A stretch of 64,000 nucleotides of DNA from a virus: positions 32,001 through 96,000 of IMG/VR virus record IMGVR_UViG_3300049830_000285; one strand, given 5' to 3'. Below, piece after piece: positions 13,797 to 56,173 of the stretch. Within the stretch, counting starts at the first letter, position 1; the number at the start of each line of letters is the position of its first letter. The position numbers and the translations under genes are program-made. The notes beneath the pieces are model-generated. The model saw only the letters and a list, made by a program, of their open reading frames with translations, searched no databases and had not been told where the DNA came from.

Positions 13797-14426
13797 ATGC
13801 GTTTATCCCTGGCAAAAAAACTTCTGAAAATAGCTAACGAACTCGACGCGCTCAGTTTGTATGAAGAAGCAAATTCCTTAACAAATATAGTGAGAGAAGC
13901 ACAAACTATGCCTGATATGTCTCAGACCCAAGCACCAACACAGCCATATCAACAGCCATATCAACAGCAACCTTGGACTGCTCCCGCCGCCGCACCAACA
14001 CCCTACAACGCTCCTCAAGCTCCCTACAACGCTCCATACAACGGTTATGCACAACAACAGAGTGGATGGTATAACCAACCTCAAATACCGCTGCCTCCGC
14101 AGAATAACGTAAATCCACAACAGACACAGCAACAACTGTTAAATATGCCAGCTAGTCCATTTACGGCAGTTAGGTTTGGGCCAGATGGTAAACCTCTTCC
14201 GCAACAAAGACAGCAGACAATGCAAGAATATGTAAACAACTATATCAAATCTATGCAAAGCAAAATGCAAGGTCAGGGTCAATCTGGCGCAAATAATACG
14301 ATTCAAAACGCTAGACAAATGCAGATTCAACAACGAAGAAATGAATTAGCTGCCGAAGATGCTCAATTGGCGTCAGAGCAATACAATCAAAATCTTGGTG
14401 ACGGACATCCAAAATTATATAAGTAA
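13797..14426 (+). CDS. Gln/Pro-rich low-complexity protein with IANELD-type leader (candidate internal head protein)
   Basis: N-terminus MRLSLAKKLLKIANELDALSLYEEANSLTNIVREAQ, then QQPY and PYNA repeats. Confidence 0.65.
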   Translation: MRLSLAKKLLKIANELDALSLYEEANSLTNIVREAQTMPDMSQTQAPTQPYQQPYQQQPWTAPAAAPTPYNAPQAPYNAPYNGYAQQQSGWYNQPQIPLPPQNNVNPQQTQQQLLNMPASPFTAVRFGPDGKPLPQQRQQTMQEYVNNYIKSMQSKMQGQGQSGANNTIQNARQMQIQQRRNELAAEDAQLASEQYNQNLGDGHPKLYK

Positions 14427-14828
14427 TTCAATCAGCATATCTTCGCCAACAATAGCGAATTGTTCAAAGGTAATATTTGGCACTTGAAATTCGACATTAC
14501 CCTTATCGTTTTTCCATATTTTACACTGGGATAGGTATTTACTTAGTGAAGTAACAATAAGTTCGCCAGCTTTTTTTCTCACTACGCCGAATGCACCGAA
14601 ACCAGCAATCGTGGCTTCTTTAATATTGATTTCGATATTACCATTTTCTAATGGATAAATCTGAAGGCGCATGGTTACAGCACCAAGTTTTAGATTTTTC
14701 TTAAAAGTGACATCTCCGTTTAAAGAGACATTCTGTTTCAAAATGTCAAGCGTTGGTATATATTTCGCATCAGTGAGTAACGCTGATAGCAAATCCACTA
14801 TTTCAGACTTGTTACATCGAATAATCAT
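14415..14828 (-). CDS. Hypothetical protein
   Basis: 137 aa, TAATG-coupled to upstream gene. Confidence 0.7.
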   Translation of the reverse strand: MIIRCNKSEIVDLLSALLTDAKYIPTLDILKQNVSLNGDVTFKKNLKLGAVTMRLQIYPLENGNIEINIKEATIAGFGAFGVVRKKAGELIVTSLSKYLSQCKIWKNDKGNVEFQVPNITFEQFAIVGEDMLIELLI

Positions 14829-15022
14829 TAGCCAGGTGTAATAATTACTTCAAGAATGACAGACGTATCTTTCGCAAGTGATTTTGTTAATTTAATGTCA
14901 CCTTCTATTGCGACCCCTTCAATGATTTGTTCCATTGCATCGAGTTTAACACCGGGGAACATCTGCTCAATCAATTTAATGATTTTTACAGGTTCGCTAC
15001 TTGACATTGTTAATTTAGCCAT
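14828..15022 (-). CDS. Hypothetical protein
   Basis: 64 aa, SD AGGAG upstream. Confidence 0.65.
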   Translation of the reverse strand: MAKLTMSSSEPVKIIKLIEQMFPGVKLDAMEQIIEGVAIEGDIKLTKSLAKDTSVILEVIITPG

Positions 15023-15105
15023 AATATACTCCTAATGGAGATTACACTCATTGGACAAAGTAATCCTTTTCCTCATATGTGAAAAATGTGGTAATATTTC
15101 ACATA

Positions 15106-15570
15106 ATGAACAAACTTATCATTATGCGAGGCTTGCCAGGTTCTGGTAAAAGCACCAAAGCGCAACTATTGGTTGGTGATGGTAAAATCTACGCTACTGA
15201 TGATTATTGGGGTGACGATTATGCTTTTGACCGAGCACGTATTGGAGAAGCACATGAATGGAATCAACAGCGCGTTCACGAGGCGATTGTTGCTGGCGTA
15301 AGTCCAATTGTTGTAGATGCGACAAATATGCAAATGTGGGAGATGCAACCTTATGTTGAATTTGCTAACGCTTTTAACTACGATATATCCTTCCATGAAT
15401 CAGATGCGCCTTGGAAATTTGATGCAGAAGAACTTGCACAGAGAAATCGACACGGAGTTCCTATTGAAATTATCAAGCAAATGTTGATGAATTGGGAGAA
15501 AGAACCAACAGTGGAAAAAGTTCTTGCAGCAGTTCGACCCAAGTTTGGTAGTTGGCGGGACGAAGAATAA
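15106..15570 (+). CDS. P-loop kinase, AAA_33 / N4BP2-like (polynucleotide kinase-like)
   Basis: LIIMRGLPGSGKST, AHEWNQ, IVVDATN and RN.HGVP motifs. Start set at ATG 15106 behind TGGTAATAT. Confidence 0.8.
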   Translation: MNKLIIMRGLPGSGKSTKAQLLVGDGKIYATDDYWGDDYAFDRARIGEAHEWNQQRVHEAIVAGVSPIVVDATNMQMWEMQPYVEFANAFNYDISFHESDAPWKFDAEELAQRNRHGVPIEIIKQMLMNWEKEPTVEKVLAAVRPKFGSWRDEE

Positions 15571-15584
15571 TCTTCATCGTCAAT

Positions 15585-15620
15585 AAAAGAGAGACAGCAA
15601 ATTCTACTGTCTCTCTTTTT
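15585..15620. terminator. Bidirectional Rho-independent terminator
   Basis: AAAAGAGAGACAG-CAAATTCTA-CTGTCTCTCTTTTT. Confidence 0.85.
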
Positions 15621-15728
15621 GTATTAAGGTATTTTTAATGTCGCAAATTGCTCTTAAATAGTATAGGAATTTTTGAAATTCTACATAAATATTCCATAGG
15701 TGGTGCTACGAACACCACTTTTACTAAC

Positions 15729-16799
15729 ATGACAATAGCTCTATGCGGATTTTATGCTAAATACAATTTTGGAGATGACTTGATGGCTCATCATCTTTCC
15801 AGGGTGCTATCTGTTGACGACACACATACTGTTAGAATTTTTTCAGATAAAAGTCTTGATAATGTAGAAAATGGTATGGCGTCCAATGGTCATTTAGATT
15901 GTGATGTTATTGTTATCGGTGGCGGCGGAATCGTCAACAATGATTTTTGGGCATTCAAAAATGATGGATTGATAAAACTCAAAAATGCACAAAAGCCCAT
16001 CGCATTTGTCAATGTAAATATTACGAGCGAGATTTTGAAAGATTCACAACTGATTGAGGATTTAAAATCTCTAAAAGCCAAATGGTGGGTTAGAAATAGA
16101 CAATCTGTGGATATTTTAACAGAAATCGGCATCACAGCATCACTTGTGCCAGATATCAGTTTTAGGCCAGGTGTCGTAACGCCATATAATAAAATGGCTG
16201 GAAAGAAACAATTATCAGTATTCTTAAACAGTTATGTATTTAACGACTTGCTTCATAACGACAATGTAAATCAATTTGTTCAAGCATTGCATAACTGTCG
16301 AATTATAGCTCAATTTTGTGATTGGATGGCAACTTTTGGTTGGAATATAACGTTCTTTTCGGCTCACACAGCTAAGTATGTTGATGACCGAATTCCATCT
16401 GCCTTTGTCTTTGGAACGATGCAAAATAAAGATGCAGCTAAATGGGTTGCAGAACCATTGGCATGGGATGACTTGATAAGAGAAATAGCACACAGTGATT
16501 TGGTGCTATCTATGCGTTTTCACTCAACAACAACGGCGTTGGCAGCAGGAGTTCCGTGTGTAGACATTACTCATCATGCAAAGAATAAATCTTTGCTTGA
16601 TGAAATTGGCGCACTATGTATTTCGGCTGAATATTCTTCACTTACACACGAGGCTCTTGTAAAAGCAGCGCAATGTGCAGAAAACCCAACATCTCATGAT
16701 AATAGAGTAAAAGCTTATCGCTCTGAAGCTGCTACTCGTTGGGAGTTATTTGACCGAGAATGGAGCACATACTTAAACAATCTAGAAGGATTACAATGA
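15729..16799 (+). CDS. Polysaccharide pyruvyl transferase family protein
   Basis: GFY...NFGDDLM, VIVIGGGG and SMRFHS...AL..GVP motifs. Start set at ATG 15729. Confidence 0.8.
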   Translation: MTIALCGFYAKYNFGDDLMAHHLSRVLSVDDTHTVRIFSDKSLDNVENGMASNGHLDCDVIVIGGGGIVNNDFWAFKNDGLIKLKNAQKPIAFVNVNITSEILKDSQLIEDLKSLKAKWWVRNRQSVDILTEIGITASLVPDISFRPGVVTPYNKMAGKKQLSVFLNSYVFNDLLHNDNVNQFVQALHNCRIIAQFCDWMATFGWNITFFSAHTAKYVDDRIPSAFVFGTMQNKDAAKWVAEPLAWDDLIREIAHSDLVLSMRFHSTTTALAAGVPCVDITHHAKNKSLLDEIGALCISAEYSSLTHEALVKAAQCAENPTSHDNRVKAYRSEAATRWELFDREWSTYLNNLEGLQ

Positions 16800-18214
16800 A
16801 CAACAACGACCACCACAACAAAGAAAATTTCTCAACAAAACTGCTAAGGGAAATGTGGGAATTTATATTTCACAAACACGATTCCCCCCATTGTGGTTGC
16901 CCTCCTCACTGCGGCGAACCCCCTCATTGTGGCGAACCCCCTCACTGCGGTTGTCCCCCTGACGGTGGCGGCATAAACATTGGTTGTGCTTTTGCTTTAT
17001 TTTTGTTTTGGTTTTGGCTGCCAGTGATGATGTTTGTTATGAAACTTGGAAGTAAATCAAATAAAAAAAAAGATGAAGAAATTAAAGTAAAGCCAAAAGT
17101 TGCTTTTATTAGTGTTTATAACACTCCATGCGGTATATCAACATACAACGAACAATTGATAAAACAATTGAGAAAGCATGCTGATGTTCATGTGTTCGCT
17201 GAATATGCCGATGATGAAAAAAATATCAGCATAGAAGGCGACCCCGATTTTGTAACTCGTTGTTGGAGTCGGACTGAGCACCCTAAAACAAAATTAATGT
17301 TTGCAGTGGATAACTGGAAACCAGATTTGATTCATTTTGGTCATGAATATGGTTTTTTTGCCAAAGCCTATTTGTTCACGTCTCTTGTTTCTTGGTTCAA
17401 AGCACACAAATATATTGTTATAGCAACAATGCATTCTATTTATGAGCACAGAGATAAAACTGTTCAAGAGGCGAGTGGTCAAATTATTATCACACATACA
17501 GAGTCTGGTAAAAAATGTCTAACAGATAAAGGAATAGACCCGTCTATTATCACCGTCATTCCACATGGCTCCAATGTTTTAGATGGTGATGCTGGTAATC
17601 CGAAGTTACTACCAGCACTCTGGAACACATGGCAGAACGAACATACAATTTTTCAACCCGGTTTTCTGTTTGACTACAAGGGTCATATTAGGATGCTTGG
17701 TGTGATAGCTGAGTTGAAAGAAAAATACCCAGATATTCATTACATTATTCAAGGTTCTGAAAACCCAAATAACATGAAGGAACACGACAGGGTATTTCAA
17801 CGATTAGTTTCAGAATGTAAACGATTGAATATAGAGGAAAACGTTACCATCAATCGAGGCTTTGTGAGCGAAGATGTATTGATGTCGTTTGTTCGCACCA
17901 CCAAAGTATGTGTTTTGCCATATATTAGCCATCCCGAGCACGATGTTTGCTCTACATCTGGTATTGCCAGAGTAGTAGTCGGGACTGAAATACCGCTAAT
18001 CACAACCAAAGTACATCTTTTTGATGATGTTGCTGGCATAGCCACTCAAGTAGGGAATGACCATGAACTGTATAATGCTATTGATGATGTATTTAGCAAC
18101 CCGCAAGCGCAAGGCGCTGCGAACAATGCTCGCGTGGAATTTTTGAAACAAACCAATTGGGATAATGTTGCAAAAATGCACTTTGACTTGTATACAAAGG
18201 TTATAAAGGGCTAA
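16796..18214 (+). CDS. Glycosyltransferase, GT-B (GT4-like), with N-terminal His/Cys repeats and TM segment
   Basis: CGISTY, DLIHFGHEYG, IPHG, PGFL..YKG, VLPY and G.PLITT motifs. ATGA overlap with upstream gene. Confidence 0.8.
   Translation: MNNNDHHNKENFSTKLLREMWEFIFHKHDSPHCGCPPHCGEPPHCGEPPHCGCPPDGGGINIGCAFALFLFWFWLPVMMFVMKLGSKSNKKKDEEIKVKPKVAFISVYNTPCGISTYNEQLIKQLRKHADVHVFAEYADDEKNISIEGDPDFVTRCWSRTEHPKTKLMFAVDNWKPDLIHFGHEYGFFAKAYLFTSLVSWFKAHKYIVIATMHSIYEHRDKTVQEASGQIIITHTESGKKCLTDKGIDPSIITVIPHGSNVLDGDAGNPKLLPALWNTWQNEHTIFQPGFLFDYKGHIRMLGVIAELKEKYPDIHYIIQGSENPNNMKEHDRVFQRLVSECKRLNIEENVTINRGFVSEDVLMSFVRTTKVCVLPYISHPEHDVCSTSGIARVVVGTEIPLITTKVHLFDDVAGIATQVGNDHELYNAIDDVFSNPQAQGAANNARVEFLKQTNWDNVAKMHFDLYTKVIKG
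16883..16960 (+). repeat. In-frame 18-nt tandem repeat x4 encoding (S/P)PHCG(C/E)
   Basis: tccccccattgtggttgc cctcctcactgcggcgaa ccccctcattgtggcgaa ccccctcactgcggttgt. Confidence 0.85.
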
Positions 18215-18222
18215 AACATGAA
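18198..18222 (+). promoter_or_regulatory. AGG-N18-NGAA motif
   Basis: AGG 18198-200, TGAA 18219-22, ATG 18241. Confidence 0.55.
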
Positions 18223-18240
18223 ATATTGTGTGGTGATGTC

Positions 18241-18675
18241 ATGAAAAGAAAAGAAGTTATTGCTACGTTGATTCATATTTCTGATGATTTAGATAGCATG
18301 GGAATGTTTGATGATGCAGATTCGCTAACCCGTTTTGCACAAGCTTGGGGCGAATTAGGGATGCACGATGTAGAATCGAATCCAGATAACGATGCCGCAG
18401 AGCATGGATTTATGGGCGAGCATCAATATGAACAAGAGCAAAAATTAATGAATGAAATGAACAATGAAGATGCATTGATGACTCTTGATGCACGCATTAA
18501 GGAACTTCAACATAAACCAGCTCCAACAATGGAAGAAATTCACGAATTAGAATCTCTGTTGGATTATCGAATGGGCGACGGATTTGATTCTTCAAATGTA
18601 TCTTCTCCGCACAAACACGATGAATCCGGTTTTGTCAATGAATTGCAAAACGCGGGCGCTAAAGTAATTAACTAA
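18241..18675 (+). CDS. Acidic protein with ISDDLD-type leader (candidate internal head protein)
   Basis: N-terminus MKRKEVIATLIHISDDLDSMGMFDDADSLTRFAQ. Confidence 0.65.
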   Translation: MKRKEVIATLIHISDDLDSMGMFDDADSLTRFAQAWGELGMHDVESNPDNDAAEHGFMGEHQYEQEQKLMNEMNNEDALMTLDARIKELQHKPAPTMEEIHELESLLDYRMGDGFDSSNVSSPHKHDESGFVNELQNAGAKVIN

Positions 18676-18998: not shown

Positions 18999-18999
18999 A

Positions 19000-21433: not shown

Positions 21434-21450
21434 ATTATCCTTATACGTGT

Positions 21451-25631: not shown

Positions 25632-26500
25632 TATGTTATCAATGTAATCCCTAAAACTTCACTTAAATATTGCTCTAATCTTGCTGGCATAATATTGCTA
25701 CCACTTTTTTGCCAATAATGTAGAAAATCTGGCTCCCACGTCGGTAGTTGAACCCAAGTGTTTACAATATTTTGTACAGCATTCTCTGAAATATTTACAC
25801 CAGCTATCACATTGTTATAATTCGTAATAGCTGCTGGAATAAGAGTAACACCCATGTTTTCTTCTGCATAACCGCCCCAGCCTCTTGGTTTTCTAACATC
25901 AATTAAGTGTGTTTCTATGCGATTTTTATAGCTTTCATTAGAATCATAATAAGTGATATCCATGATAAAGCGATAGATTTCCAAAATAAAGCCACTACTC
26001 GGTGGCGCGACAGGTGTAATATCTCCATTTTGTAAAGCTGATATTGCTGTGTCGATATCAAAATCTTTATTCATTAATATTCTCGTTCCAGTGCCGTTAG
26101 TGCCGCCTCTTAACAATAGTGGGACAATAGTTGGTGCTGTTGGAGCTGTATTACTTTGCAAAAATATACTACCAAAAGCATAAACATTTTGTAACGGTTC
26201 TGCGCCACCAATATCCAACAATGATGACAGAGATAATCCAGATTCAACAGAGGGAATATTCAATAAGTCTCCCTCTTGTCTGGTGACGCCAATACTTATT
26301 ACCGCTTCCTTGGCATAATTAGTCGTCAATTGTGGTTCAACAGAGGCGTATCCCCAACATAAATCTAAATCCCTGACCGTAAGATTCACACCCATCGCGA
26401 ATTCCTCTAAAGACAATGATGTGTCTTGCGAAGAATAGATTAAATCTCTTCCTCGCAGCATCGAATCTAAAACATTCGCTGTGTATTTATTTGGTGACAT
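25631..26500 (-). CDS. Virion structural protein, hypothetical
   Basis: 289 aa, TAATG-coupled on both sides within the tail operon. Confidence 0.6.
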   Translation of the reverse strand: MSPNKYTANVLDSMLRGRDLIYSSQDTSLSLEEFAMGVNLTVRDLDLCWGYASVEPQLTTNYAKEAVISIGVTRQEGDLLNIPSVESGLSLSSLLDIGGAEPLQNVYAFGSIFLQSNTAPTAPTIVPLLLRGGTNGTGTRILMNKDFDIDTAISALQNGDITPVAPPSSGFILEIYRFIMDITYYDSNESYKNRIETHLIDVRKPRGWGGYAEENMGVTLIPAAITNYNNVIAGVNISENAVQNIVNTWVQLPTWEPDFLHYWQKSGSNIMPARLEQYLSEVLGITLIT

Positions 26501-29500
26501 TATGTGCTCCTCAACACTAAGATGTCGCCAGGGGGCGCACCATGAGTCGATGTTGAAAACGCATCAGATGTTTTACCAACAGAAAGAAAAACAATTCGGT
26601 CTGCGTTATTTGGTGTTATTTGTACAGGGATAGGCGCAATATCTGTGGCACCGAGACTAACATAAGCGGCTAAATTGGATGGTGGAGACCATTCTAGATG
26701 TAATTTTTCATTATCAGAACCATCGTATGGAGCACCATAATAGTGTTCTACTACAACAGAATAGTAAAGTCCAGATGTTAATGATGGTGTCATGGCTGTT
26801 AATATTTGCTGACTATTAGGGTCAGCAGTAGGCCATGAATCAATTAATAATTCTCCTTCAAAATAAACTCGAACGCCGTCATTAAATGTTGCTTTAATAC
26901 GATGTGCTCCGGTCTCTAAAGCCTGTACACTGCTTTCAAAGCGACCGTTGAAGTACGTACTCTGAGTGGTGCTAAAGTCATAGCTTGTGTAGTTTAATGT
27001 ATTAGTCATAACATCAACGTCGGGCGCAACATTAATATCAATAAACTTGTAACTACCAGAATTTCTTTTCCACCACAAATTTCTCCAACCTTGCGCAGCA
27101 GGAAGCTTAACAGTGTAATCGTATGTTGTACCACCGATTTCGTACCTTACACATACGTAAATATCTTTACTTCTCCGAACATATGACCAGGAAAACCCGT
27201 CATTAACAGCCCTTGGGTAAATAGATATTGGGCCGGATGTTGGCATTTTATCACATGTAAATGCCCAATATCCATCCACTTTGTAAATAGATGTATGCTC
27301 TCTTGCGGTATTTGGGCCTGGTAGATATTGCAAGATGTTGGCAGTCGAGCGATTGAATGCGCCCAAGATAAAGCGACTCGATTGATAGAACTTAAACCAC
27401 GCAGAGCCAGAATCTACCTGCCAAACATTTGCACTATCTGTTTTAGCAACATGTTCTGGGCTTGAACCTTTATCAATAACAACAACTCCGCCAGATACCT
27501 GAGCGTTTTTGGTTAACACAAACCAATAATTACTCCCGATTGTTGCGCCATCTATCGCAAATGTAAATTCTTGCCATGTATTTGTAAGTGTGTTGATTCT
27601 TATAAAACTACCATCCAGTGCCTGTACAACCACTGGTACACCGCCACCAGCATCACTGTAAATAAATGCAGTGAATTTATCATCTGAACTATTGTATGGT
27701 ATTAATGTTAAATTAGTTGAGTCGGGAATGAATTTCATTCTTATAACGAACGAGCGCATCTGTGATACAAGAGATGCTGACGCGAGATAAATAGCTTGTG
27801 ATTTGGCCAAAAATGGCTCTTCAAACCCAGTGTATGCATTTCCACTGTGGTCAATAAGCAAAGCCCCGGAAGCTGGCGATACATTATCATAACATTTAAA
27901 CCAAGCACCGCCACTGCCAACTCTCCATGTGTCTGCACTTGGGGTATCCCACATTGTTGAGTTCCATAGATAAGAAATACCGCCGCCAGTTGGATTAGAG
28001 CCATTGACGCTATCAAATACAATTGTTCCGCCCTCGGTGGGAGCGCTTTTTTCTAACACAATCCAATATTTAGTTCCAGTGGATAAGCTCGCGTACAGAT
28101 TGCATCTAAATTCTTGATATGCACTTGTGAACGAACTATAGCTAATTTCCCCACCTGTGACAATTAATTCTCCGGGAATATTTTGAGCATTGTCATTAAC
28201 TGTATTTGAATATAGAGAAACGGTGATATGTTCGCTGTTCGTATTTGTCAACAATCCTGTTGTATTTGCAATGTCAAATACACATTTTGCCTTAAATGAA
28301 AATTCTCCCACTCCACTGGCGTCAGTTGTCGATAAGTAAAAACCAATAGAAGTAGACACAAATGGTTTTTCTTTTCCAGTATTAGCAGAAGCATCTAGTG
28401 CTGCATCACTGGGAAGTTGAGCCTGTGTGCCAAAATTTTCTAAATCGCCAGCCGCTAGATTAGATGGTGCAATAGTAAAAGAATCAGAGCGCAGACTTGA
28501 CAACGGCGGCATTGCCTCTTCTCCATCGCTTTGTATTGCCCCAAAATACGGATTTGTATTTTCTTTCCAATATGGAATCGTCGCGAAGCTATAATCAGAA
28601 ATACTAATAGATGCGCCTCGCAGTGCAACAAAATCATTTGGATACTGACGTAAATCAACAGTGTAAAATTCGCCGCCAGAATCGAGATATAGTTGAACAA
28701 ATATATCTATTTGTTCCTGGGTGTATCCTTGATTTTCCAGATTTTTTCTAAATTGTGCTTCTGTTGTTTTGGTTTCATCTTCTGGCGCAACAACTTTTGT
28801 ATATAAAGTGCGATAATCTCCCATAGATAAATCTGGAACTATACCAGCATAACCATGTAGTCTCCACTCATCTATAGTTTCAAGAGTACCACTTGCCCTT
28901 GATGCTCTTTCTTCGTCGGTGCCTTTCTTGTAATAACCAATTGTTGTTAAACCCTGAGATATTCTATTGGCATACTCTTGATTAGTAAGATAATATTTAG
29001 AAGCCATAATATCCCAATCTTTTTGAAATGTATTTTCATCAATGTCTTCGAGAAGTAGGCGCAGTTTATAATCTAACCCAATTCGAACACCAGCGGAGTC
29101 AGTATCCAGCACACTACAGGATTCAGATGGTTCAAGAAAAATCTCAAATTTGGTTGGGATATTAAATCTATTGTTTTTGAGATACAATTTATCTGAATCA
29201 AATCTTAAAACTTCCGTAGAAGGTGGTAAACCAGATAATTCTTCAATCATTCCTCTCGCAGAAGCAGTAAATTGAAATGCTATTGGCGTTTCATCAACCG
29301 CCGCTTGTAGTAATGGATTGTGTGGTTTCTTTAACAATCCGCGAAATGTTTGCGAAGCATTTCCATCTGGATTTACCAATGCAAGGCGTGAATTAGCCAG
29401 TGTATTTGGTGTCCTGGAGCCTGGGACAACCAAATGAAAAGCCGCATTCAAAACGGGATTGTTAAAATGAGTTGAGCGATAATTTTGTACCGTTTTAGCC

Positions 29501-31119
29501 AACGAACCAAGTAAACTGTCTGTTAATATTGTGTCATCAAATGGTGGATGGGCGAATGTTACCGCTGGTTGGTCAATAAACAAAATTGAAAAGTTTTGAT
29601 GTAAATTGCTACTTGTTACGCCTTCAAAATCATTTGTTTTAACTGCCCCAATCAACCCTCCATCCACGCCTTCAACTGTTTGATAGAGTGTGCCCGGAGC
29701 GCGACGATAAACCACTCTTGCAATAACGGTGTAATCTTGCGGTGGAATAGGCCAGTATGAAAAATTACTCCAATTATCGGGATAATCTTCGGGGGATATA
29801 GGAGCGCCTACAAAAACCAATGGGTCTGATTGCGGATAATCAAATTCAGTACCTCGATTTTTAGTAAGATATAATACTGGCACAGCATCGCCAGTATTAA
29901 TATCCAATAGATATCCGGTAATACTATTTGTTAAACCATGTGTTGCAGACTCAGGCCAATCATGTAATAAATGATATGCGGCTGGAGCTGTGGGATTACT
30001 ATATTGTCCATCAAAGAATTGAAAATGAGTTCTACGTTTGTCAATCAAATGAAGATTAGATGTTACAGAATTAGATTTATCATTGATTGCCAAGCTAGAC
30101 CAAGTGAGTCTATCTGTTATCTCATTGCGAAAATAGCTTTTCTTTTCCCATTTAATTAAATGGTCACTGGTAACAACAACAACAGGATTGCCATTTGCGG
30201 CGTTTTGCGTTCCAATAGTAAATGTATCCTTTGAACCCCAATAAATAACAATATGCCACCACTCGTTATTTAACCAATTGGTTAAAAAAGCAGGCCTAGT
30301 TACGGTAATATCCCAGCTAGTATTTACGGAGCCATTTCTTGCAATAGAGTAATCCAGTTGAGTCAAAATACCATTAGTGTCATCACTTACAGGCGGCTGA
30401 GTTAGAGCACCCCATGAACTAATTGTTCCATTTCCAGAGACGACGGCAGTTTGGTGTAAATTGGCATGAGAATATAAGCGTACATCTAATGGAGCGTCTG
30501 TTGCTGCATTAGTGAGCATCACTCCCTCAAGCTCTTCTTTGGTCAATGTAAATCGAAAATCTTTTACCGGAGATGTTCCGCCTGTGGTGTTTTTAATAGA
30601 AAGCCAACGAGCATTCTGCCAAAATCCAACCTGATGATATGTACCAGAGCCAACGTGATATCGGACTGGTGTTAACCGAGTAAGTCGAGAGGCGTAGCTG
30701 GGTTCTGAATTTTCGTCATTATTAGATGGTCGAGCACGCGGATATCCCTTCCATTGGTTATAATCCCAAACTCCCCATCCCTCCGGTGTGGGTGGCCCAT
30801 CATAACTTGGATTCCAATTTCCAGATACATATGCGGGAAATAACGATTGTGTTTTACCATTATCAGCTAAAACAGCTCCACCTTGAATTCCATATCCAAC
30901 TCGGTCTAGACTACCAAATTTTAATAATGACGTGTTGGGAAGTGCATAATCAAAATCATGAAAACGAACAGAACCCTTCAATCGACATAATGCTCTCTCT
31001 AGCCGTAACAATGCTCCTGGGCGTCTATCTATGTCCCCTATAGGTGTATCTATTGCTCCCCAAGCTCTTCCTAAAGATTCTGTCAAAAGCGTGAGTTGTT
31101 TTCTGTCAATATTTGTCAT
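26500..31119 (-). CDS. Large tail/baseplate protein with two YW(I/F)VL modules and C-terminal PA14 domain
   Basis: 1539 aa. GRFE..G.HRIK..FNDGVRVYFEGELLID.W...GLYYSVVVEHY...L.LEW is a PA14 signature. Confidence 0.7.
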   Translation of the reverse strand: MTNIDRKQLTLLTESLGRAWGAIDTPIGDIDRRPGALLRLERALCRLKGSVRFHDFDYALPNTSLLKFGSLDRVGYGIQGGAVLADNGKTQSLFPAYVSGNWNPSYDGPPTPEGWGVWDYNQWKGYPRARPSNNDENSEPSYASRLTRLTPVRYHVGSGTYHQVGFWQNARWLSIKNTTGGTSPVKDFRFTLTKEELEGVMLTNAATDAPLDVRLYSHANLHQTAVVSGNGTISSWGALTQPPVSDDTNGILTQLDYSIARNGSVNTSWDITVTRPAFLTNWLNNEWWHIVIYWGSKDTFTIGTQNAANGNPVVVVTSDHLIKWEKKSYFRNEITDRLTWSSLAINDKSNSVTSNLHLIDKRRTHFQFFDGQYSNPTAPAAYHLLHDWPESATHGLTNSITGYLLDINTGDAVPVLYLTKNRGTEFDYPQSDPLVFVGAPISPEDYPDNWSNFSYWPIPPQDYTVIARVVYRRAPGTLYQTVEGVDGGLIGAVKTNDFEGVTSSNLHQNFSILFIDQPAVTFAHPPFDDTILTDSLLGSLAKTVQNYRSTHFNNPVLNAAFHLVVPGSRTPNTLANSRLALVNPDGNASQTFRGLLKKPHNPLLQAAVDETPIAFQFTASARGMIEELSGLPPSTEVLRFDSDKLYLKNNRFNIPTKFEIFLEPSESCSVLDTDSAGVRIGLDYKLRLLLEDIDENTFQKDWDIMASKYYLTNQEYANRISQGLTTIGYYKKGTDEERASRASGTLETIDEWRLHGYAGIVPDLSMGDYRTLYTKVVAPEDETKTTEAQFRKNLENQGYTQEQIDIFVQLYLDSGGEFYTVDLRQYPNDFVALRGASISISDYSFATIPYWKENTNPYFGAIQSDGEEAMPPLSSLRSDSFTIAPSNLAAGDLENFGTQAQLPSDAALDASANTGKEKPFVSTSIGFYLSTTDASGVGEFSFKAKCVFDIANTTGLLTNTNSEHITVSLYSNTVNDNAQNIPGELIVTGGEISYSSFTSAYQEFRCNLYASLSTGTKYWIVLEKSAPTEGGTIVFDSVNGSNPTGGGISYLWNSTMWDTPSADTWRVGSGGAWFKCYDNVSPASGALLIDHSGNAYTGFEEPFLAKSQAIYLASASLVSQMRSFVIRMKFIPDSTNLTLIPYNSSDDKFTAFIYSDAGGGVPVVVQALDGSFIRINTLTNTWQEFTFAIDGATIGSNYWFVLTKNAQVSGGVVVIDKGSSPEHVAKTDSANVWQVDSGSAWFKFYQSSRFILGAFNRSTANILQYLPGPNTAREHTSIYKVDGYWAFTCDKMPTSGPISIYPRAVNDGFSWSYVRRSKDIYVCVRYEIGGTTYDYTVKLPAAQGWRNLWWKRNSGSYKFIDINVAPDVDVMTNTLNYTSYDFSTTQSTYFNGRFESSVQALETGAHRIKATFNDGVRVYFEGELLIDSWPTADPNSQQILTAMTPSLTSGLYYSVVVEHYYGAPYDGSDNEKLHLEWSPPSNLAAYVSLGATDIAPIPVQITPNNADRIVFLSVGKTSDAFSTSTHGAPPGDILVLRST

Positions 31120-31943: not shown

Positions 31944-32432
31944 TTACTTGGAGTCTGATTTTCCGCCAGAAGCTGGGTTGCGCGGAGCATTCATCAAAGT
32001 GTTGCGAATAAATCTATTTGCACGAAGATTAACCTGGCCCACTAATAGTCGTTCACCGTTTTGTATTTTAGCCAATTCTGTGTGAGCCCATGCTTCGCGT
32101 TCTTTCTGAGAATCACTTCTCTGACGGTCTGCGCCCTGTAATCTTTGCTCCCAAATCATCTGAGCAGCCAGTAAAGCGGCAACAGATGGAATTGGTTGTG
32201 GATATCCCACTTCTCCGCCCTGATTAACTTTGACTAAAGGTACATCAAATTGCGTGGCAAGAGCGCCGTCAATGTGCGAACATGCTTGTTGAATAAAAAA
32301 ATCAACATCAATGTTGGTTAATGATTCCGGGTTGGGATTCATTGGATTCGGTGTCGGATTTTGTCCCTGTGAAACAATTCCCTCGGGAAGATATTGTTTC
32401 ACGGAATCTTCATCGCAATAACTACGTGCCAT
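31944..32432 (-). CDS. Head-tail adaptor (Mu gp36 / DUF1320-like)
   Basis: YCDEDSV, FIQQACSHIDGALATQFDVPL, LAA..IW and AHTEL.KIQNG pattern. Confidence 0.7.
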   Translation of the reverse strand: MARSYCDEDSVKQYLPEGIVSQGQNPTPNPMNPNPESLTNIDVDFFIQQACSHIDGALATQFDVPLVKVNQGGEVGYPQPIPSVAALLAAQMIWEQRLQGADRQRSDSQKEREAWAHTELAKIQNGERLLVGQVNLRANRFIRNTLMNAPRNPASGGKSDSK

Positions 32433-33154
32433 TATTGTTGTTGTACCTCTTGTGGATTATTGTTAGAAATGGGTGCATTAGCCTGCATTTGCTCGTCTTG
32501 TTTTAAATACTGAGGTACAAATTCGGTTCCCTCTCCTTCTGGCAGCAAGCCAGTTGCCTCCATATCTTTGCGATGGATTAGAGTATATGTTTTGCTCGTT
32601 TCAAGAGCATTGGGCGTATCTGAGGCAGAAGACACAAAACGTGGATATTCAACCTCAACATCCATATAACCACCGGAAACGTCATTATAAATTTCGATTG
32701 CATCAGGGGCATAAATACTTCCTTTCATTTTATTTAGGTGTTGGGCTTGTCGCTTTGTTACATTAATTGCCATAACCCAACCGCCACGGTCGTGTGCGAA
32801 TTGAATAGCTTTATCTATTGGAAGATTCAAATGCATTGGTTCCTTTAAATTGTAGACGACAATATGAAACTTATCAGCACACGTATAATCTTCCCCTGGC
32901 GCTACATAAATATCTAATCCAGATTGTTTTGCGATTTGTGTTGCTTGCCATCCTACTTGTGGACTGTTCGGAGCCACAATACCCACCATATCTAATCCTT
33001 TAATGATAGCTGATGTAAGCATTGATTTCAAAACTGAACTAACATCATTTGTGTTGGCAACCTGGGACATATCGCCTGGATATACGCGCAAATCTACGCG
33101 CATTTGATGTTTGCGTAAAGATGTTCGTATAGATTGCGGTGTATACCAGGACAT
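32432..33154 (-). CDS. PHP-fold protein lacking metal ligands
   Basis: RVDL, A..KGLDMVGI, PGED, HIVVY, GGWVMA, DAIEIYN and ASD align to PHP, but the conserved His residues are replaced. Confidence 0.6.
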   Translation of the reverse strand: MSWYTPQSIRTSLRKHQMRVDLRVYPGDMSQVANTNDVSSVLKSMLTSAIIKGLDMVGIVAPNSPQVGWQATQIAKQSGLDIYVAPGEDYTCADKFHIVVYNLKEPMHLNLPIDKAIQFAHDRGGWVMAINVTKRQAQHLNKMKGSIYAPDAIEIYNDVSGGYMDVEVEYPRFVSSASDTPNALETSKTYTLIHRKDMEATGLLPEGEGTEFVPQYLKQDEQMQANAPISNNNPQEVQQQ

Positions 33155-33879: not shown

Positions 33880-34365
33880 TTATACAGCAGGTTTCATTTG
33901 TTTTGCTTCAGACTTAGACCATTTAAAACTTTCAACATCCACTCCAAGTTGGTCGCCAATACCCAAAATGTAATTCATCATATCAGCTTCAGAAACACCG
34001 TCAGGTGCTTTGAAGATAACAGTACACGTATGAGTCTTTCTGTCATCCACAACTGGCTCTTCGCCTGGACGCATTTTTACAAAACTAGAAATACCAGGGT
34101 TCATCGAGGATTCTTGTTCGCCTTCATCGGCTGTATCGCCCTCATCTGCCATATTTTGGAAAGACGGATTGTACCCGCCACTACCGCCAGCCATATTAGT
34201 TGATTGCCCAGTGTCTCCAAAGAATTGAGCGATTCTGCGCAACTCTTTAGCTCGTGGGTGGTTAATAGATTCCAATTTGCTTGCAATCCTTTCAATATTC
34301 TGCTTCATTTCTGCAACGTTCTCTTTCATTTGTCCACCTGTGGAATTTTTTACGATTTTTGACAC
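33880..34365 (-). CDS. Hypothetical protein with IASKLE-type leader variant
   Basis: IERIASKLESINHPRAKELRRIAQ, then Gly/acidic linker and a small alpha/beta domain. Confidence 0.65.
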   Translation of the reverse strand: MSKIVKNSTGGQMKENVAEMKQNIERIASKLESINHPRAKELRRIAQFFGDTGQSTNMAGGSGGYNPSFQNMADEGDTADEGEQESSMNPGISSFVKMRPGEEPVVDDRKTHTCTVIFKAPDGVSEADMMNYILGIGDQLGVDVESFKWSKSEAKQMKPAV

Positions 34366-43149: not shown

Positions 43150-43164
43150 TCAATAGCGTGCGCC

Positions 43165-44571: not shown

Positions 44572-44573
44572 AT

Positions 44574-46769: not shown

Positions 46770-46783
46770 CTTGTATAAGTTAG

Positions 46784-47008: not shown

Positions 47009-47010
47009 AA

Positions 47011-51300: not shown

Positions 51301-52595
51301 TACGAGCGCGGGGGCAGGGATTTTTAGACCAAGACGTTTGGAGTAGAACAGTTGTAGCTGATGGCACATCTGCTGGCGAGGGTGCAACTTCAGCGGTAGA
51401 AGATAAGCATTCAAAAACGGTACATGTTGCCCATGAAGACGTGGACACGGTTGGTGGTCAATCTATTTCTATGATGTCTGATTCTCCGGTTATTAAACAT
51501 AAAGTCTTTGATTCTCCATATCGAAAATCATTATTAGATGATAACGTTGCTGGTCGAAATGCTGGGGGTATTTCCGTTCTGGGTAACACTGCTCCTAATT
51601 TGCAATTTATCAATATGGGCAGCTTCACTAACGACAATCCCGCTGTACTTGGGCTTATATCACAGCACGAGGGCAACGATTATGCGTCAGCGCAAGCTAG
51701 TATGAATACATCTCTAGGTGGCTTTGGTACATGGTTTGGTTCTAATCGTGACATGGCTGCAAATGATTTTGCAACAGTTAAAAAATTCGCAGATGGATTT
51801 TTGTCTCCAGTAATGGCACAATCATCTGTTTCTTCTTTAGTATATGTCGCTGGTTGGTGCGAACCCGGCGCGATTCTCTTAAAAGAAGCTAGTATGTGGG
51901 ACAGTAACACAAACACTGCTTCTGGAAATATCTTCTTGGTTGACGGATTAACTAACAATCCTATCCCTGACAGCTCACCAATAACTCAACCATCGTTCAT
52001 TTCTGGTCTCAAAGCTGTTCAAACATTTCCAGGCATAATAATTGATGCGCATAACACTGTGACTGTAGCTTACACATTGGAGGGTAGAACAGGAGAATTA
52101 TATGCTCGTTCATTAATTGGTGGACAGGGGATGAGCAATCCGTATGTTATTGCTACATTCAGAAGTCCAGGTCACTTAACCTCTGATGTCAATATCTTTG
52201 CGCCAACAATGAGCTGGCATGAATCAACTCAAAGTTATTATGTAGCTATGTGGTGTGGCGGCAAGATATTTTTGACGACATTCTGCGGCTTAAGAACATC
52301 GCATGGCGTGTTAATGAATCCGTTACAATTAGTAGCCGGGGATAAGGATTTCACTAGCGGGAAAAACTCAGCCAATCCAGTCTTTCAGGCATTAGTACAA
52401 TCTGGCGGATTGATTAACAATCAACTTGGAACTGCTGAAAGTGATATTCCACAACAAAGAGTTGGCTTGTATGTAAGTGATAAATGGCCTTTCCAGGGTA
52501 ATGCTTTCGTATATTACAAAGATAGTAACAATAAATTGATGATGCGCCAGGTTCGAATTGGTGGAATCACTGGTGCGCAAAAAGAAATCAGTTGA
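48333..52595 (+). CDS. Large virion structural protein (tail/baseplate)
   Basis: 1420 aa, beta-rich Ser/Thr/Gly composition within a structural operon. Confidence 0.6.
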   Translation: MPDSYSNPSYKPPTRPYKWVPNTIPNGGDTPIGFYPPQIVRGAFRNDITIQEGFTGSTVTVTATGTMISSKGSENNPILAVHRPMVDPDNDRGVPPSELFDISGNFKWQVELSQATRISSITIEYALVVDVNDPALLALLDPGDAAALALYLQHPTGEPPSIDWSKYKFAKITLDDKEYPANGTDGKPKELAVTGVTKTVKLHTVKFVDSFVVSGFPITKRIAISNRSGLDTLELILSKVYIFDAARVNLHDNQLPSALMEYAYPTRFSFTPSPSMNAQRLPFPSDADNPNFHFKIYSPEELIATKYGMAHSINLRFLVFSMPILGIDPTGVNNLYFAIFIGPAPGRRTVKTALSGELAQSHIANANKNRVVVADSFTIEKDTKTLRLEKVASAAAISPPANNANWIRIDNSTYNVVGNNTFGDEGSYVSEYLFLDNSTSVNNWYRTVQSLGSGAEKISAPFQNKTYSEHIVYKALSSATTSTKKDSVVRRIPIMSDFIGGSPLNAERPISTFVMDGFNALVNPIRIRKGSFKLAIRAKVEDPSFLLNTHLYARFWFVPDGSDTDVNNLYHWRDSTEFHFETSATGTKVVQGAPRSMQDLIVSPPIPNSLTYLEMVRYNDVEVDFPEKGHSAPFSGAKLMVALYAVGYPSADGTAQNITKNTPNLPKITIELDSQYGTFETPIQYVESNVLFAQRASRYNSSQFIAVDAPQIVTKGKIGGGELDSGAYPKYDSKFKSNDSEPFNGLLKMNKSDSGTLAKFCIPITAVPGEKDEQTSVYADFATADKSLDSGRVLDGDWKVSFTVNRGIDTTLVAIDYRIEMFLVSGDGKVTERIFRSSTVNGVKISGTGDISYTASIKIPMIISGSGTQLVMRLIGYPYSRSGNAVDVGSIQNQLGSTPFGIRIDSLQIVSHTLSRLSISQVASFLGSPAFNENLQVVPNQSIGETSDFWFIASDFLTHVFVVDASVGIDITGSLYSPAWFINMPKDMEIRARGQGFLDQDVWSRTVVADGTSAGEGATSAVEDKHSKTVHVAHEDVDTVGGQSISMMSDSPVIKHKVFDSPYRKSLLDDNVAGRNAGGISVLGNTAPNLQFINMGSFTNDNPAVLGLISQHEGNDYASAQASMNTSLGGFGTWFGSNRDMAANDFATVKKFADGFLSPVMAQSSVSSLVYVAGWCEPGAILLKEASMWDSNTNTASGNIFLVDGLTNNPIPDSSPITQPSFISGLKAVQTFPGIIIDAHNTVTVAYTLEGRTGELYARSLIGGQGMSNPYVIATFRSPGHLTSDVNIFAPTMSWHESTQSYYVAMWCGGKIFLTTFCGLRTSHGVLMNPLQLVAGDKDFTSGKNSANPVFQALVQSGGLINNQLGTAESDIPQQRVGLYVSDKWPFQGNAFVYYKDSNNKLMMRQVRIGGITGAQKEIS

Positions 52596-52610
52596 TGTAC
52601 AATATGTAGC

Positions 52611-52961
52611 ATGAACACCAATATTAAATCAACTCCAACAGAACCTGTAAATTTTCGCATCAATACTGAAATGGTGGTTAATTTAAAAAGACTCGCCAGA
52701 CATGTATCTTATCATCTTGATGATGATTATACTTATGTGGACATCATTAGATGTTTGCTGGCAGAACATTTTCCAGTTCCAGAGACAGACTTAATTGCAG
52801 ATACCCAATCAAAACAGGTACAAGATATTTGTTCACGTATTACCAGACAGGCTGCTTTAGCGGGCGTACCGTACATTTCCTCAACCTTTACATCCAGTAC
52901 ATCTATAGAAGGAACTACAATTTCTGGCTTAAAACAAAACAACCTAGATGAGAGCGAATAG
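52611..52961 (+). CDS. Ribbon-helix-helix-like DNA-binding protein (ends in TAG)
   Basis: PVNFRINTEMVVNLKRLA....TYVDIIRCLL fits a strand-helix-helix pattern. TACAAT lies 7 nt before the ATG. Confidence 0.5.
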   Translation: MNTNIKSTPTEPVNFRINTEMVVNLKRLARHVSYHLDDDYTYVDIIRCLLAEHFPVPETDLIADTQSKQVQDICSRITRQAALAGVPYISSTFTSSTSIEGTTISGLKQNNLDESE

Positions 52962-52984
52962 GATTCGTTCAAATTAATGTTGAA
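52960..52984 (+). promoter_or_regulatory. AGG-N18-NGAA motif upstream of cca
   Basis: AGG 52960-62, TGAA 52981-84, ATG 53014. Confidence 0.55.
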
Positions 52985-53013
52985 CAAATATTAAGCGTAG
53001 GTTGTAAATCATC

Positions 53014-55815
53014 ATGTGGTATGGAAAAATGTTGAAAGCAAATAAAAATGGAATCTCACGAGAGGAATTGAACATCCCTCTGAGCGGCGCTTTGCAACAA
53101 ATTCTACAAACATTGGTACAAAATGGCTGGAGAGGCTTGGTCGTTGGCGGGGCTGTTCGAGACGCTGTAACAGGTCATGTTCCCAAGGATATCGACGTTG
53201 AAGTTTACGGGCCTGATTTCAAACAGCTTGCGGCAGTTCTCAAGCAATATGGTCATGTACTTGGCGGCGCAGCGGATGAATCAGTAGACGATAATTCATA
53301 TCAAGAATTTGTGCCCATTCCTTATTTTCCAGAAAAGTTCAGGGATTCACAACCATCTCAAATGAGTTCAGATGGCCCAATTCCCAATCAAGGGTGGATG
53401 TACAATCTAAATCCAAAGCCTCAAAAATCTCCTGTTATTGGAAAGGCGTTCGGTGTTATCAAATTTAGAGATGCCGAAGGGAACGATTATGACTTCTCCT
53501 TACCTCGTCGTGACAGTAAGACGGGTGAGGGTCACACTGGATTTGATATTCAAGTAGACCCAAATATGTCTCCACTTGAGGCTGCATCACGGCGTGATTT
53601 TACGTTTAATTGTTTTTCATCTGAAACAAGAATGTTGACAAAAGCTGGAATTTTTAGTTTTTCAGAGTTGGTAGAACAGTATGTTGATGTTTTAAATCAA
53701 AACGGTGAATGGGTCAATGCTTTAATTAGAGCATGCGGACAACAGCCGTTAATGAAGTTAATTTTACAAAGAAATGGAGTTAAAAAAGAAATATTTGTAA
53801 CACCAAATCACAGATGGTTTGTGCGCAACAAACATACTGGAAATTACACATCTGTACGCACCACTGAAGAATTAAAAAAATGTCATTTTATATCATCTGT
53901 TTTTCCTAAAAATATTTCAAAAGATGTTATCCCAAATAATGATGCAATATGTCGCGGGTTTGTGTTTGGCGATGGGTCTTTAACATATGGTAGTAGAAAC
54001 ATTGCTAGTGTTGCAAATTTTTGTGGAGAGAAAGACAAAAATTTATTACCTTGTTTTTCAAAACTCCCTGTAGGTTGTTCTCCAAGAGAATACCCTGGTG
54101 TCATAAAAATTCAAGGATTGCCATTTGAGTGGAAAGCCCATGTTCCTGATTTAGAACACGAAGATACATCGTATTTATATGGATGGTTGGCGGGATATTT
54201 TGCCGCAGACGGCTGTGTTGATAAAAAAGGGTGCCCGACATTAAGTTCTGCATCGTTAGAAAACATTGAATATGTAAAAATGTTATGTCAAAAACTAGGA
54301 ATAGGAACTTTACACACAAGTGTTTCTCACGGAGGCGCTGGGGCATACAAACCAGACTCTGTGTGTTATATACTTGCTTTTGTAAGGTCAACACTATGCC
54401 CTGAGTTTTTTGTAATTCCTGAACACAGAAAAAGATTTGTGTCTCATCAATACAATAGAGAAAGAACTGGATGGAGCGTTGTTTCAGTTGAAGAAACTGA
54501 CCGTTACGAAGAAGTTTTTTGCGCAGAAGTGCCAATTGACCATGCATTTGTTTTAGAGCACAATGTATTAACTTCGAATTCACTTGCATACGACCCGTTG
54601 ACAAACGAACTTCATGATTACTTTGGCGGTAAAAAAGATTTGGATAATCGAATTTTGCGTGCTACAGATATGGAAAAATTTGGGGAAGACCCACTGCGCG
54701 TTTTGCGCGGTATGCAATTTGCTGCCAGAATGGGATTGACAGTAGACCCGCAAACTGCAAAGTTGGCGCAAAATCTTGCAAATGAAATTCCTAATCTTTA
54801 TAAGTCTCCAGAGAATCCAAATGGCATCTCTCGCGAACGTGTAACTGAAGAATTTATGAAGCTTGCTACCAAGGGTAAATTCCCAGGTAGTGCAATTCAG
54901 TACCTTCAAGATACTGGTTGGGTAAAATACTTCCCGCAAGTTCAGGCTATCATTGATGTACCGCAGGATGAAGAGTGGCACCCAGAGGGAGCTGTACATA
55001 TTCACACAGCACACGTCATGAACGCTGCTGCTGAAATCGCTGATAGGCGCGGTTTGAAAGGTGATGACAGGGCTGTTGCAATCTTTGCAGCGCTCGGGCA
55101 CGACTTCGCTAAAGCAACGACAACAGAGCAGCGCGAAAAGGGCGGACGAATGCGATGGACGGCACATGGGCACGAAGAGGCTGGCGGGCCGGTGGTAAAA
55201 GAGTTTTTACAGAGCATCGGAGTTAAAAATGACATTATTAATCGTGTTGTTCCGCTTGTCCGTAAGCATTTGAATCACATTCAATACAAAGACGAGAACA
55301 TTTCCAAGGGAACTGTTCGTGGTTTGTCGCATGATATTTACCCTGCGACTATAGAAGACTTGGTTGACTTGATTGAAGCAGACCATTCTGGACGCCCGCC
55401 TTTGGAGAAGATGCTACCAGAGCAAGCTCAATGGTTATTGGATGCGGCTAAGAAAGATAATGTTCACAATCAGAAGCCACAACAGGTTATCACTGGAAAG
55501 CATGTATTGCCATGGTTCCAGGGTAAAGTTGGCCCGCACGTCGGAAAAGCAGTTAAGGAAGCTTATGAAGCCTACTTAAAGGGCAGATACACCACCCCAG
55601 AAGAGGCAGAAGTATGGTTACGCAACTATATGAAGGCAAATGCTCAATTACTGCGTGGTGATGATGTTTTGCCATATTTTGGCGGTAAAGGCGGCGCTCA
55701 AGTCGGACAAATATTAGATAAAGCCTGGGACGCTCAATCTGCTGGTGAATATACTGACCAAGATGCAGCGAGAGCTTGGTTGGAAAACTATATGAAAACT
55801 AACCCATCCGCTTAA
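53014..55815 (+). CDS. cca: Class II tRNA nucleotidyltransferase (CCA-adding) with HD domain, intein-containing
   Basis: VGGAVRD..DIDVE, RRDFTFN, EDPLRVLRG.QFAAR, SRERV.EEF.K, HPEG..HIH and GHDFAK motifs. Confidence 0.92.
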   Translation: MWYGKMLKANKNGISREELNIPLSGALQQILQTLVQNGWRGLVVGGAVRDAVTGHVPKDIDVEVYGPDFKQLAAVLKQYGHVLGGAADESVDDNSYQEFVPIPYFPEKFRDSQPSQMSSDGPIPNQGWMYNLNPKPQKSPVIGKAFGVIKFRDAEGNDYDFSLPRRDSKTGEGHTGFDIQVDPNMSPLEAASRRDFTFNCFSSETRMLTKAGIFSFSELVEQYVDVLNQNGEWVNALIRACGQQPLMKLILQRNGVKKEIFVTPNHRWFVRNKHTGNYTSVRTTEELKKCHFISSVFPKNISKDVIPNNDAICRGFVFGDGSLTYGSRNIASVANFCGEKDKNLLPCFSKLPVGCSPREYPGVIKIQGLPFEWKAHVPDLEHEDTSYLYGWLAGYFAADGCVDKKGCPTLSSASLENIEYVKMLCQKLGIGTLHTSVSHGGAGAYKPDSVCYILAFVRSTLCPEFFVIPEHRKRFVSHQYNRERTGWSVVSVEETDRYEEVFCAEVPIDHAFVLEHNVLTSNSLAYDPLTNELHDYFGGKKDLDNRILRATDMEKFGEDPLRVLRGMQFAARMGLTVDPQTAKLAQNLANEIPNLYKSPENPNGISRERVTEEFMKLATKGKFPGSAIQYLQDTGWVKYFPQVQAIIDVPQDEEWHPEGAVHIHTAHVMNAAAEIADRRGLKGDDRAVAIFAALGHDFAKATTTEQREKGGRMRWTAHGHEEAGGPVVKEFLQSIGVKNDIINRVVPLVRKHLNHIQYKDENISKGTVRGLSHDIYPATIEDLVDLIEADHSGRPPLEKMLPEQAQWLLDAAKKDNVHNQKPQQVITGKHVLPWFQGKVGPHVGKAVKEAYEAYLKGRYTTPEEAEVWLRNYMKANAQLLRGDDVLPYFGGKGGAQVGQILDKAWDAQSAGEYTDQDAARAWLENYMKTNPSA
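53611..54579 (+). mobile_element. Intein with LAGLIDADG homing endonuclease (323 aa)
   Basis: Cys1 CFSSETRMLT, block B TPNH, GFVFGDG and LAGYFAADG motifs, C-terminal VLTSN followed by Ser+1. Removal restores RRDFTFN-SLAYDP. Confidence 0.92.
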
Positions 55816-56173
55816 ATTTGGATGAGGTATTTGCTTGTAAATTCAAGTTATTGACCTGGCCTGACATAATGGATTGATACATTTGTCGGGCAGCGTCATC
55901 ATTTAAGCCAGACGGGTCGATTCCAGCACCTCTTAATGCGGAGTGTATGTTCATCATTTCCATTTGGTCATTCATTTGATTACCCATTTGTTGATTTCCC
56001 ATCATACCATTCATGAAATCTGGCATTTGTGATTCATCACCGCCAGAATTAAAATCTTGAATAGGCCCGTTTATGTTTGATAGACGCACCATTACTTGCG
56101 TTATTACCTCTGCCTCTTTGTGCATCCCTACTTCATCAAGTTGATTGGCGATGATTTCAAGTTTATCTAGCAT
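55799..56173 (-). CDS. Met/Asn/Gln-rich protein with IANQLD-type leader (ends in TAG)
   Basis: N-terminus MLDKLEIIANQLDEVGMHKEAEVITQVMVRLS. Start set at ATG 56173. Confidence 0.65.
   Translation of the reverse strand: MLDKLEIIANQLDEVGMHKEAEVITQVMVRLSNINGPIQDFNSGGDESQMPDFMNGMMGNQQMGNQMNDQMEMMNIHSALRGAGIDPSGLNDDAARQMYQSIMSGQVNNLNLQANTSSKFKRMG

Follow-up and report, generated by a model that had tools for sequence, protein, structure and literature searches.

To our knowledge, beyond bacteriophage T4 there is almost no recognisable head-targeting signal, and packaged or injected proteins are hard to predict from sequence. Terminal helical elements that serve procapsid entry and can be transferred to foreign cargo include the C-terminal coat-binding helix-turn-helix of the P22 scaffolding protein and the C-terminal targeting tail of the HK97 protease; each is a single-copy part of a dedicated scaffold or protease, with a basic character in P22. 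Encapsulin cargo-loading peptides, which belong to cellular nanocompartments, are short, extended and mostly C-terminal, and involve no protease step. The T4 prohead protease gp21 cleaves after Glu in L/I-x-E. The T4 internal proteins have in common an N-terminal capsid targeting sequence (CTS) of 10-19 residues, which guides them to the core of the prohead and is cut off by gp21 (PMC9026906). In the jumbo phages SPN3US and phiKZ, several head and ejection proteins (gp245 substrates in SPN3US) lose N-terminal propeptides, 20-254 residues long in SPN3US, to a short-motif prohead protease which also processes itself (PMC10052503). Here, we analysed a 64,000-nucleotide window of an uncultured phage, bases 32001-96000 of IMG/VR record IMGVR_UViG_3300049830_000285 (G000; whole record 177,708 bp, 40% G+C), in which unrelated proteins carry the same acidic terminal module of 36 residues, hereafter called the tag. 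The analysis establishes the existence of this module, its modular use and a terminal motif that head-module proteins also have; it is predicted to form a hairpin, and we give a probability of about one half to the reading that it is a prohead-targeting propeptide, cut off by the maturation protease in a manner similar to the T4 CTS.

The tag was found as a leader beginning at the ATG codons at window positions 13797, 18241 and 56173, as the sequence-only reading had reported. A hidden Markov model (HMM) made from these three leaders alone and run on 1,806 six-frame segments of the genome showed that they form one family, since it recovered four further copies (E = 8e-9, 1e-7, 6.5e-5 and 2e-3), and convergence of the profile was reached with seven copies, all at E <= 7e-11. 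An eighth, weaker copy was located at the C-terminus of a 276-aa protein, C276 (E = 0.28); its orthologs in relatives scored E = 2e-8 and 1e-7 with a profile that already contained the C276 copy. The genome has eight copies in total, six N-terminal ones starting at Met1 and two C-terminal ones, in proteins of 276 and 822 aa (C822), and all eight are solitary and at the extreme terminus. N209 (13797..14426, + strand) has the tag in residues 1-36 (13797-13904), ending in REAQ, and a Q/P-rich body (Q 21%, P 12%); its closest database relative, P0088, exhibits 83% identity in tag and in body alike. N144 (18241..18675, +) has the tag in residues 1-34 (18241-18342), ending in RFAQ, followed by an acidic body of net charge -16 whose sole match among the 150 best hits is P0143 (32% identity). 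N124 (55799..56173, -) exhibits a leader at 56066-56173, with the tag in residues 1-32 (56078-56173) ending in VRLS, and an M/N/Q/G-rich body matching P0152 (52%) and P0060 (37%). Two further tagged genes, N190 and N176, are neighbours coding for acidic proteins, with N176 starting 2 nt after N190.

Once the tag was removed, the bodies had no significant mutual similarity (best BLASTP E = 0.14), in agreement with the earlier claim that they are unrelated, and the database matches of each body were its own orthologs alone, which indicates real genes and not ordinary paralogs. The gene listed as the 34365 gene had been proposed to carry a weaker variant of the leader. It codes for a 149-aa protein (33880..34329, -; true ATG at 34329) with a helical N-terminal leader and RRIAQ at residues 31-35; the profile did not detect it at E < 50, the hhalign probability was 2.4%, and RRIAQ is all that it shares with the tag, so that this proposal was abandoned.

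The AlphaFold2 model of the tag, built from a 34-sequence alignment, is a helix-turn-helix with helices at residues 2-18 and 22-37 and a tight turn between them, at a mean predicted local distance difference test (pLDDT) of 90, which together with the unrelated bodies fits the modular helical hairpin suggested beforehand. The consensus is h..IAN.LD..G...EAD.hT, then [KR]-x-[AS], with one Asp invariant and two Ala nearly so. Identity with a known non-structural domain was also checked: Pfam and PHROG scans of the tagged proteins matched no family, and Foldseek comparison of the tag model with the PDB gave generic hairpins, TPR proteins and ROP only, all at E > 1. In the ESM Atlas, the same hairpin occurs elsewhere only on viral hypothetical proteins.

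In a representative library of 1.84 billion proteins, 1,028 clusters matched the tag at E <= 1e-3. Among the best 150 matches, 82 had a single N-terminal copy and 3 a C-terminal copy, and 60 showed two to three matching stretches; this last class is a mixture of tag-only tandem proteins (P0014, P0023), which are a minority, and some genuine TPR proteins. These C-terminal and tandem occurrences go beyond what the sequence-only reading had described. The tag is strikingly conserved in the database examples with divergent sequence downstream, and 69% of the bodies are net acidic. It is present in all five relatives identified by TerL, with three copies in each of two 35-kb fragments (G001 and G002 being among the relatives) and six to seven in the megaphages, and five jumbo-phage records of 166-358 kb contain 8-18 copies each, partly densely clustered. 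Over the related jumbo phages and megaphages of 129-479 kb with the capsid protein found here, the number of copies per genome ranges from 3 to 18. Short metagenomic contigs have at least seven small tagged genes in ~12 kb; such dense clusters recall the hypervariable internal-protein loci of T-even phages. No tag match was obtained in phage G, Tunturi_5 or the uncultured record LR745208, which all share the type of major capsid protein (MCP) found here, and one tagged protein, compared by tblastn with 50,697 deposited phage records, had no match there. A scan of 185,579 prokaryote species genomes with one tag subtype (alignment A6) also gave none, and the module is apparently virus-restricted as far as searched.

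The tag closes with a short motif that also occurs in proteins of the head module. Among the N-terminal database tags, 77 of the 82 have [KR]-x-[AS] at about residue 35, the next residue being most often Q, E or D. Genome-wide, R-x-A-Q was counted 23 times compared to 7.8 +/- 2.7 in shuffled sequences, with 11 of the 23 within the first 60 residues of the protein. Untagged head-module proteins accounted for 10 occurrences against 1.43 expected (7-fold, p = 2.7e-6) and tagged proteins for 4 against 0.51, and the remaining proteome gave 9 against 5.7 expected, which is not significant. The zinc-ribbon protein whose gene lies downstream of that of TerL keeps [RK]-x-A-Q-F-G-G in five relatives, and in the two most distant of them the detectable homology begins exactly at the motif, the pattern expected of a propeptide boundary. 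The motif [KR]-x-A-[QE] might therefore be the recognition site of the head-maturation protease. That its fourth residue varies speaks slightly for a cut after Ala, and the Ala-Ser cleavage sites of the homologous herpesvirus assemblins agree with such a cut.

Leaders other than the tag also close with this motif; one head-module protein has MWYRQAQ, and the leader of the 34365 gene has RRIAQ. Two head-module proteins, at genome 12577-13692 (+) and 13689-15758 (-), have Cys-rich zinc-ribbon-like leaders of ~40 residues ending in R-x-A-Q, an apparent further type of propeptide. Five proteins begin with M(S)WY, four of them with MWY[RG]: window 9479-10015 (+), 32432-33154 (-) and 53014-55815 (+), and genome 26270 and 154502. 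One of these reads MWYRQAQ and another MWYRNIVTAE, and M(S)WY may represent a second, very short leader class with the same processing motif.

The head-maturation protease is itself part of a fusion protein of 1438 aa (genome 29444-33760, +, with the C-terminal part at window 3..1760). Its protease domain covers residues 84-246, and zinc-ribbon-like motifs are present in the ~1,100 extra residues. Every tag-bearing relative examined has the fusion at full length; in phage G and Tunturi_5 the protease is a separate protein of ~300 aa. The ortholog of the megaphage G004, located in an open frame of ~1,870 aa, matches in two separated pieces, and an insertion is thus apparently present. The fusion contains four R-x-A-Q and two R-x-A-E, which were compared in nine orthologs of 38-78% identity. 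Site 307, just past the protease domain, and site 1197 (RYAQ, window 1032-1043), a putative autoprocessing site, are invariant as [RK]-x-A-Q, and at sites 655 and 1370 (the latter RVAQ, window 1551-1562) [RK]-x-A is kept in most orthologs. Sites 1187 and 1380 are not conserved and were dropped, as was the N-proximal RTAE of C822, which is not conserved in its orthologs. The phage G multi-omics paper contains no cleavage-site data for this protease. The tag-bearing phages have the MCP and the protease fusion in common: four of the five jumbo-phage records exhibit the same MCP (84-86% identity) and a full-length fusion (44-46% identity), and in the fifth, ~46% complete, neither was seen. The MCP is unusually conserved where the fusions share so much less.

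Gene order also connects the tag to the head module. The genes of the tagged proteins N148, C276 and C822 are located between TerL (genome 10343-12517) and the portal gene (genome 26838-29270), and the close relatives G001 and G002 have three copies in the same TerL-proximal region. The full order of UDP-galactopyranose mutase gene, N-tagged gene, p175-like gene, gene for a C-tagged protein of ~300 aa and gene for a C-tagged giant protein is retained in the 479-kb G005, whose TerL is 43% identical and whose large C-tagged protein has 2,502 aa. The head link rests on two independent lines, gene position and a common short motif, which are indirect but convergent. In the PDB and BFVD, no fold matched the C276 model (pLDDT 79.5) significantly, and searches of the PDB with the C276 and C822 sequences gave no matches. 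A weak match of C822 to Sigma70_r3 was not reproduced in three orthologs and was not relied on. The UDP-galactopyranose mutase gene (genome 15590-16696; L047:511-1638 in G005) lies directly upstream of the first tagged gene, a position kept in G005, and may contribute to galactofuranose-containing glycosylation. A small gene follows 3' of the large C-tagged protein in G000 (genome 21026-21400) and in G005 (L047:11074-11475); the G005 copy is a DUF192 protein (COG1430, E = 8e-23), and the G000 copy, scanned against PHROG only, had no match.

If the tag is a prohead-targeting propeptide, its hairpin, a TPR-like docking domain, would bind a component of the prohead core, scaffold or shell and bring in the protein that carries it, and the shell would close around the docked proteins. 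The protease would free itself from the polyprotein and then trim the tags at the [KR]-x-[AS] that closes helix 2. The released bodies would become internal head proteins, possibly ejected with the DNA, or disposable core components, and the C-terminal tags of the two conserved head-module proteins would dock in the same way with no cleavage motif. What we infer here from sequence is the targeting to the head, the cleavage and what becomes of the bodies. Of the earlier proposal of a head-sorting tag, the modular hairpin stood, and the sorting role has the indirect support of the gene order from TerL to portal, the motif enrichment and the conserved sites of the protease fusion. More tentatively, the tag could be seen as a folded, transferable "virion address label" of a large, globally distributed uncultured clade with a phage G-type capsid, loading 8-18 proteins per genome and removed by a polyprotein-type protease at [KR]-x-A-[QE].

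Among the described systems, the T4 CTS, with its removal by a protease, is closer to the tag than the encapsulin cargo peptides with which the sequence-only reading had drawn an analogy (PMC9026906). As in T4, an N-terminal leader is common to divergent small proteins and the genes are numerous and variable; a putative protease motif follows the leader, and the logic of core targeting and later removal would be the same. The tag differs from the CTS as a predicted folded hairpin of 36 residues with no evident sequence resemblance to the shorter T4 peptide; it is also found C-terminally and in tandem and on many more proteins, its bodies are mostly acidic and not basic, and its putative motif is [KR]-x-A-[QE]. 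SPN3US and phiKZ are likewise jumbo phages with N-terminal propeptides and a short-motif prohead protease, although the considered part of that source describes no common propeptide sequence for SPN3US, whereas here one domain is found on 8-18 proteins per genome (PMC10052503). They also belong to a different lineage from the present phage with its phage G-type MCP. The tag resembles the P22 and HK97 elements as a small terminal helical element with proposed entry into an HK97-fold procapsid, but it is acidic, multi-copy and located on unrelated proteins, and MCP binding is hypothetical. With the encapsulin peptides it would have in common the bringing of diverse cargo into an HK97-fold shell by a modular terminal tag; it differs as a viral, predicted folded hairpin with a putative protease step.

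Several points weigh against a prohead-targeting propeptide. The motif could merely be the end of helix 2 of the tag, and its enrichment in head proteins, being statistical, does not prove that the tags are substrates of the same protease. In the window, the tag of N124 ends in VRLS and R-x-A-Q is found in two of the three tags only, and no cleavage motif is conserved in the C-terminal copies. Most bodies are acidic and of low complexity, in contrast to the T4 internal proteins, which are basic. This composition is odd for cargo associated with DNA, but disposable core components could have it. Protein binding is a generic property of TPR-like hairpins. A complex prediction for the tag (A2) and the MCP (A3), scored 0.00 with controls not run, is evidence neither way.

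A last point against it comes from the promoter-like element AGG-N18-NGAA, which had been noticed for three of the genes and was found upstream of all three tagged window genes, at 13750..13774 (+) 47 nt before the N209 ATG, at 18198..18222 (+) 43 nt before the N144 ATG and at 56193..56217 (-) 44 nt before the N124 ATG. At 32-54 nt before the start it occurs for 13 of the 205 called genes and for the 56173 gene (ATG start), compared to ~1 expected from the genome-wide density, and five of the six N-tagged genes have it 32-47 nt before the ATG. The exception, N176, is probably co-transcribed with N190. A phage-specific factor probably uses the element as its promoter; the first box on its own does not define a general class of promoters. 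Several genes have merely 7-13 nt between the element and the ATG, which implies very short leaders. It also heads three of the five M(S)WY genes, the genes of an RNA ligase and a CCA-adding enzyme, and a few operons, in which scans found one PA14 domain only and no PHROG matches, and a 731-aa protein was unmatched in phage G and Tunturi_5. The element precedes RNA-repair-type genes and not those of the MCP or portal, and could be an early or middle promoter.

This use of the element would suit the strongest competing explanation, a general docking or oligomerisation module with no role in the capsid, which we consider unlikely. The hairpin would tether disordered, mostly acidic tails to another hub, either a phage or host complex (transcription or translation machinery, chaperone) or other tagged proteins, and the head-module copies would be incidental. 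The tag profile cross-matches genuine TPR_10 and TPR_12 repeat proteins, and among the isolated tags TPR_10 was the commonest weak Pfam match (4 of 34, best E = 0.005); the three window proteins gave no TPR match in Pfam even at E <= 1. The tag and these repeats have a helix-turn-helix of equal length and a similar pattern, LA..L...G.Y.EA, but the tag is mostly a solitary terminal hairpin and not a tandem superhelical array, is below the Pfam thresholds and conserves additional polar residues (N, D, E, D/N, T). Packing of tags on each other is suggested by the tandem forms, with the reservation that the multi-stretch class among the best 150 matches includes some genuine TPR proteins. In the contigs L035 and L036, a dense tag cluster adjoins a DnaJ-domain gene, distant from recognisable head genes. 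The combination of a hairpin at the N-terminus and a flexible acidic stretch after it also recalls ribosomal stalk proteins (Atlas structural row). A module of this kind, however, leaves unexplained why the motif is enriched in head-module proteins only, why it is conserved in the protease polyprotein and why a tagged trio is conserved between TerL and portal, and no candidate hub was found. The reading of the tag as bL12 or a stalk mimic was rejected, as G000 gave no PF00542 match and the bL12 homolog of G004 has the N-terminal domain of ordinary, native-type bL12 and not the tag. The gene of this complete homolog of the ribosomal protein lies at L046:1324-1704 (G004:303959-304339), ~1.1 kb upstream of a tagged gene.

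Still less probable is a permanent, uncleaved adaptor for virion attachment, which would anchor minor structural or decoration proteins to the capsid or portal with R-x-A-Q as a mere helix end. The C-terminal copies suit such an adaptor, as does the third or so of the database N-tags with no Q, E or D after [KR]-x-[AS], and the unconserved RTAE of C822 shows that some instances of the motif are non-functional. Against this, [KR]-x-[AS] is held at the same position in nearly all N-terminal tags, and the motif coincides with a propeptide-like conservation boundary in an untagged head-module protein and marks linker sites after the protease domain. Chance resemblance, or ordinary paralogs with best-conserved N-termini, is already refuted: a tandem duplication is conceivable for the adjacent and acidic N190 and N176, but their bodies compare at E = 7.5, the other bodies show no significant similarity either and have orthologs of their own, the three-seed profile finds independent copies and the tag is located at both termini.

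If the tag is a prohead-targeting propeptide, a single profile of 36 residues would pick out the proteins packaged by jumbo phages and megaphages of an abundant uncultured lineage, and the more than 1,000 tagged clusters would be a catalogue of packaged, probably injected effectors, for example anti-defence or takeover proteins. The tag would then define the specificity of the maturation protease and offer a compact folded handle for foreign cargo in very large capsids, a known principle, that of capsid-targeting propeptides, being carried by an undescribed and widespread viral domain. Were the head link wrong, it would still be a widespread, unannotated and apparently virus-restricted domain that merits a family entry.

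The MCP (window 4547..5407, +; phrog_2522, E = 6.5e-67) exhibits 47% identity to gp27 of Bacillus phage G. MCPs 70-99% identical to it are found in more than 120 metagenomic clusters, on contigs of up to ~420 kb, and complete megaphage records of 441 kb and 479 kb are among the TerL relatives, which places the phage in a large lineage of uncultured jumbo phages and megaphages whose relation to phage G is distant. Most large open reading frames of the genome have no PHROG or Pfam match. The interval between protease and MCP contains an acidic low-complexity protein of 619 aa (window 1935..3794, +), a scaffold/core candidate by position and composition and a possible receptor of the tag. Immediately 5' of the MCP gene, a 225-aa protein (window 3831..4508, +) is encoded at the position that the capsid decoration gene gp26 has in phage G. 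A long operon on the minus strand, which codes for large proteins lacking annotation, includes the gene of a probable fibre or adhesin, a 1539-aa protein (window 26500-31119, -) with a PA14 carbohydrate-binding domain at its C-terminus. A 334-aa protein (window 10022-11026, +) with matches to HNH/endonuclease VII-type and DNA-binding domains is probably a homing endonuclease.

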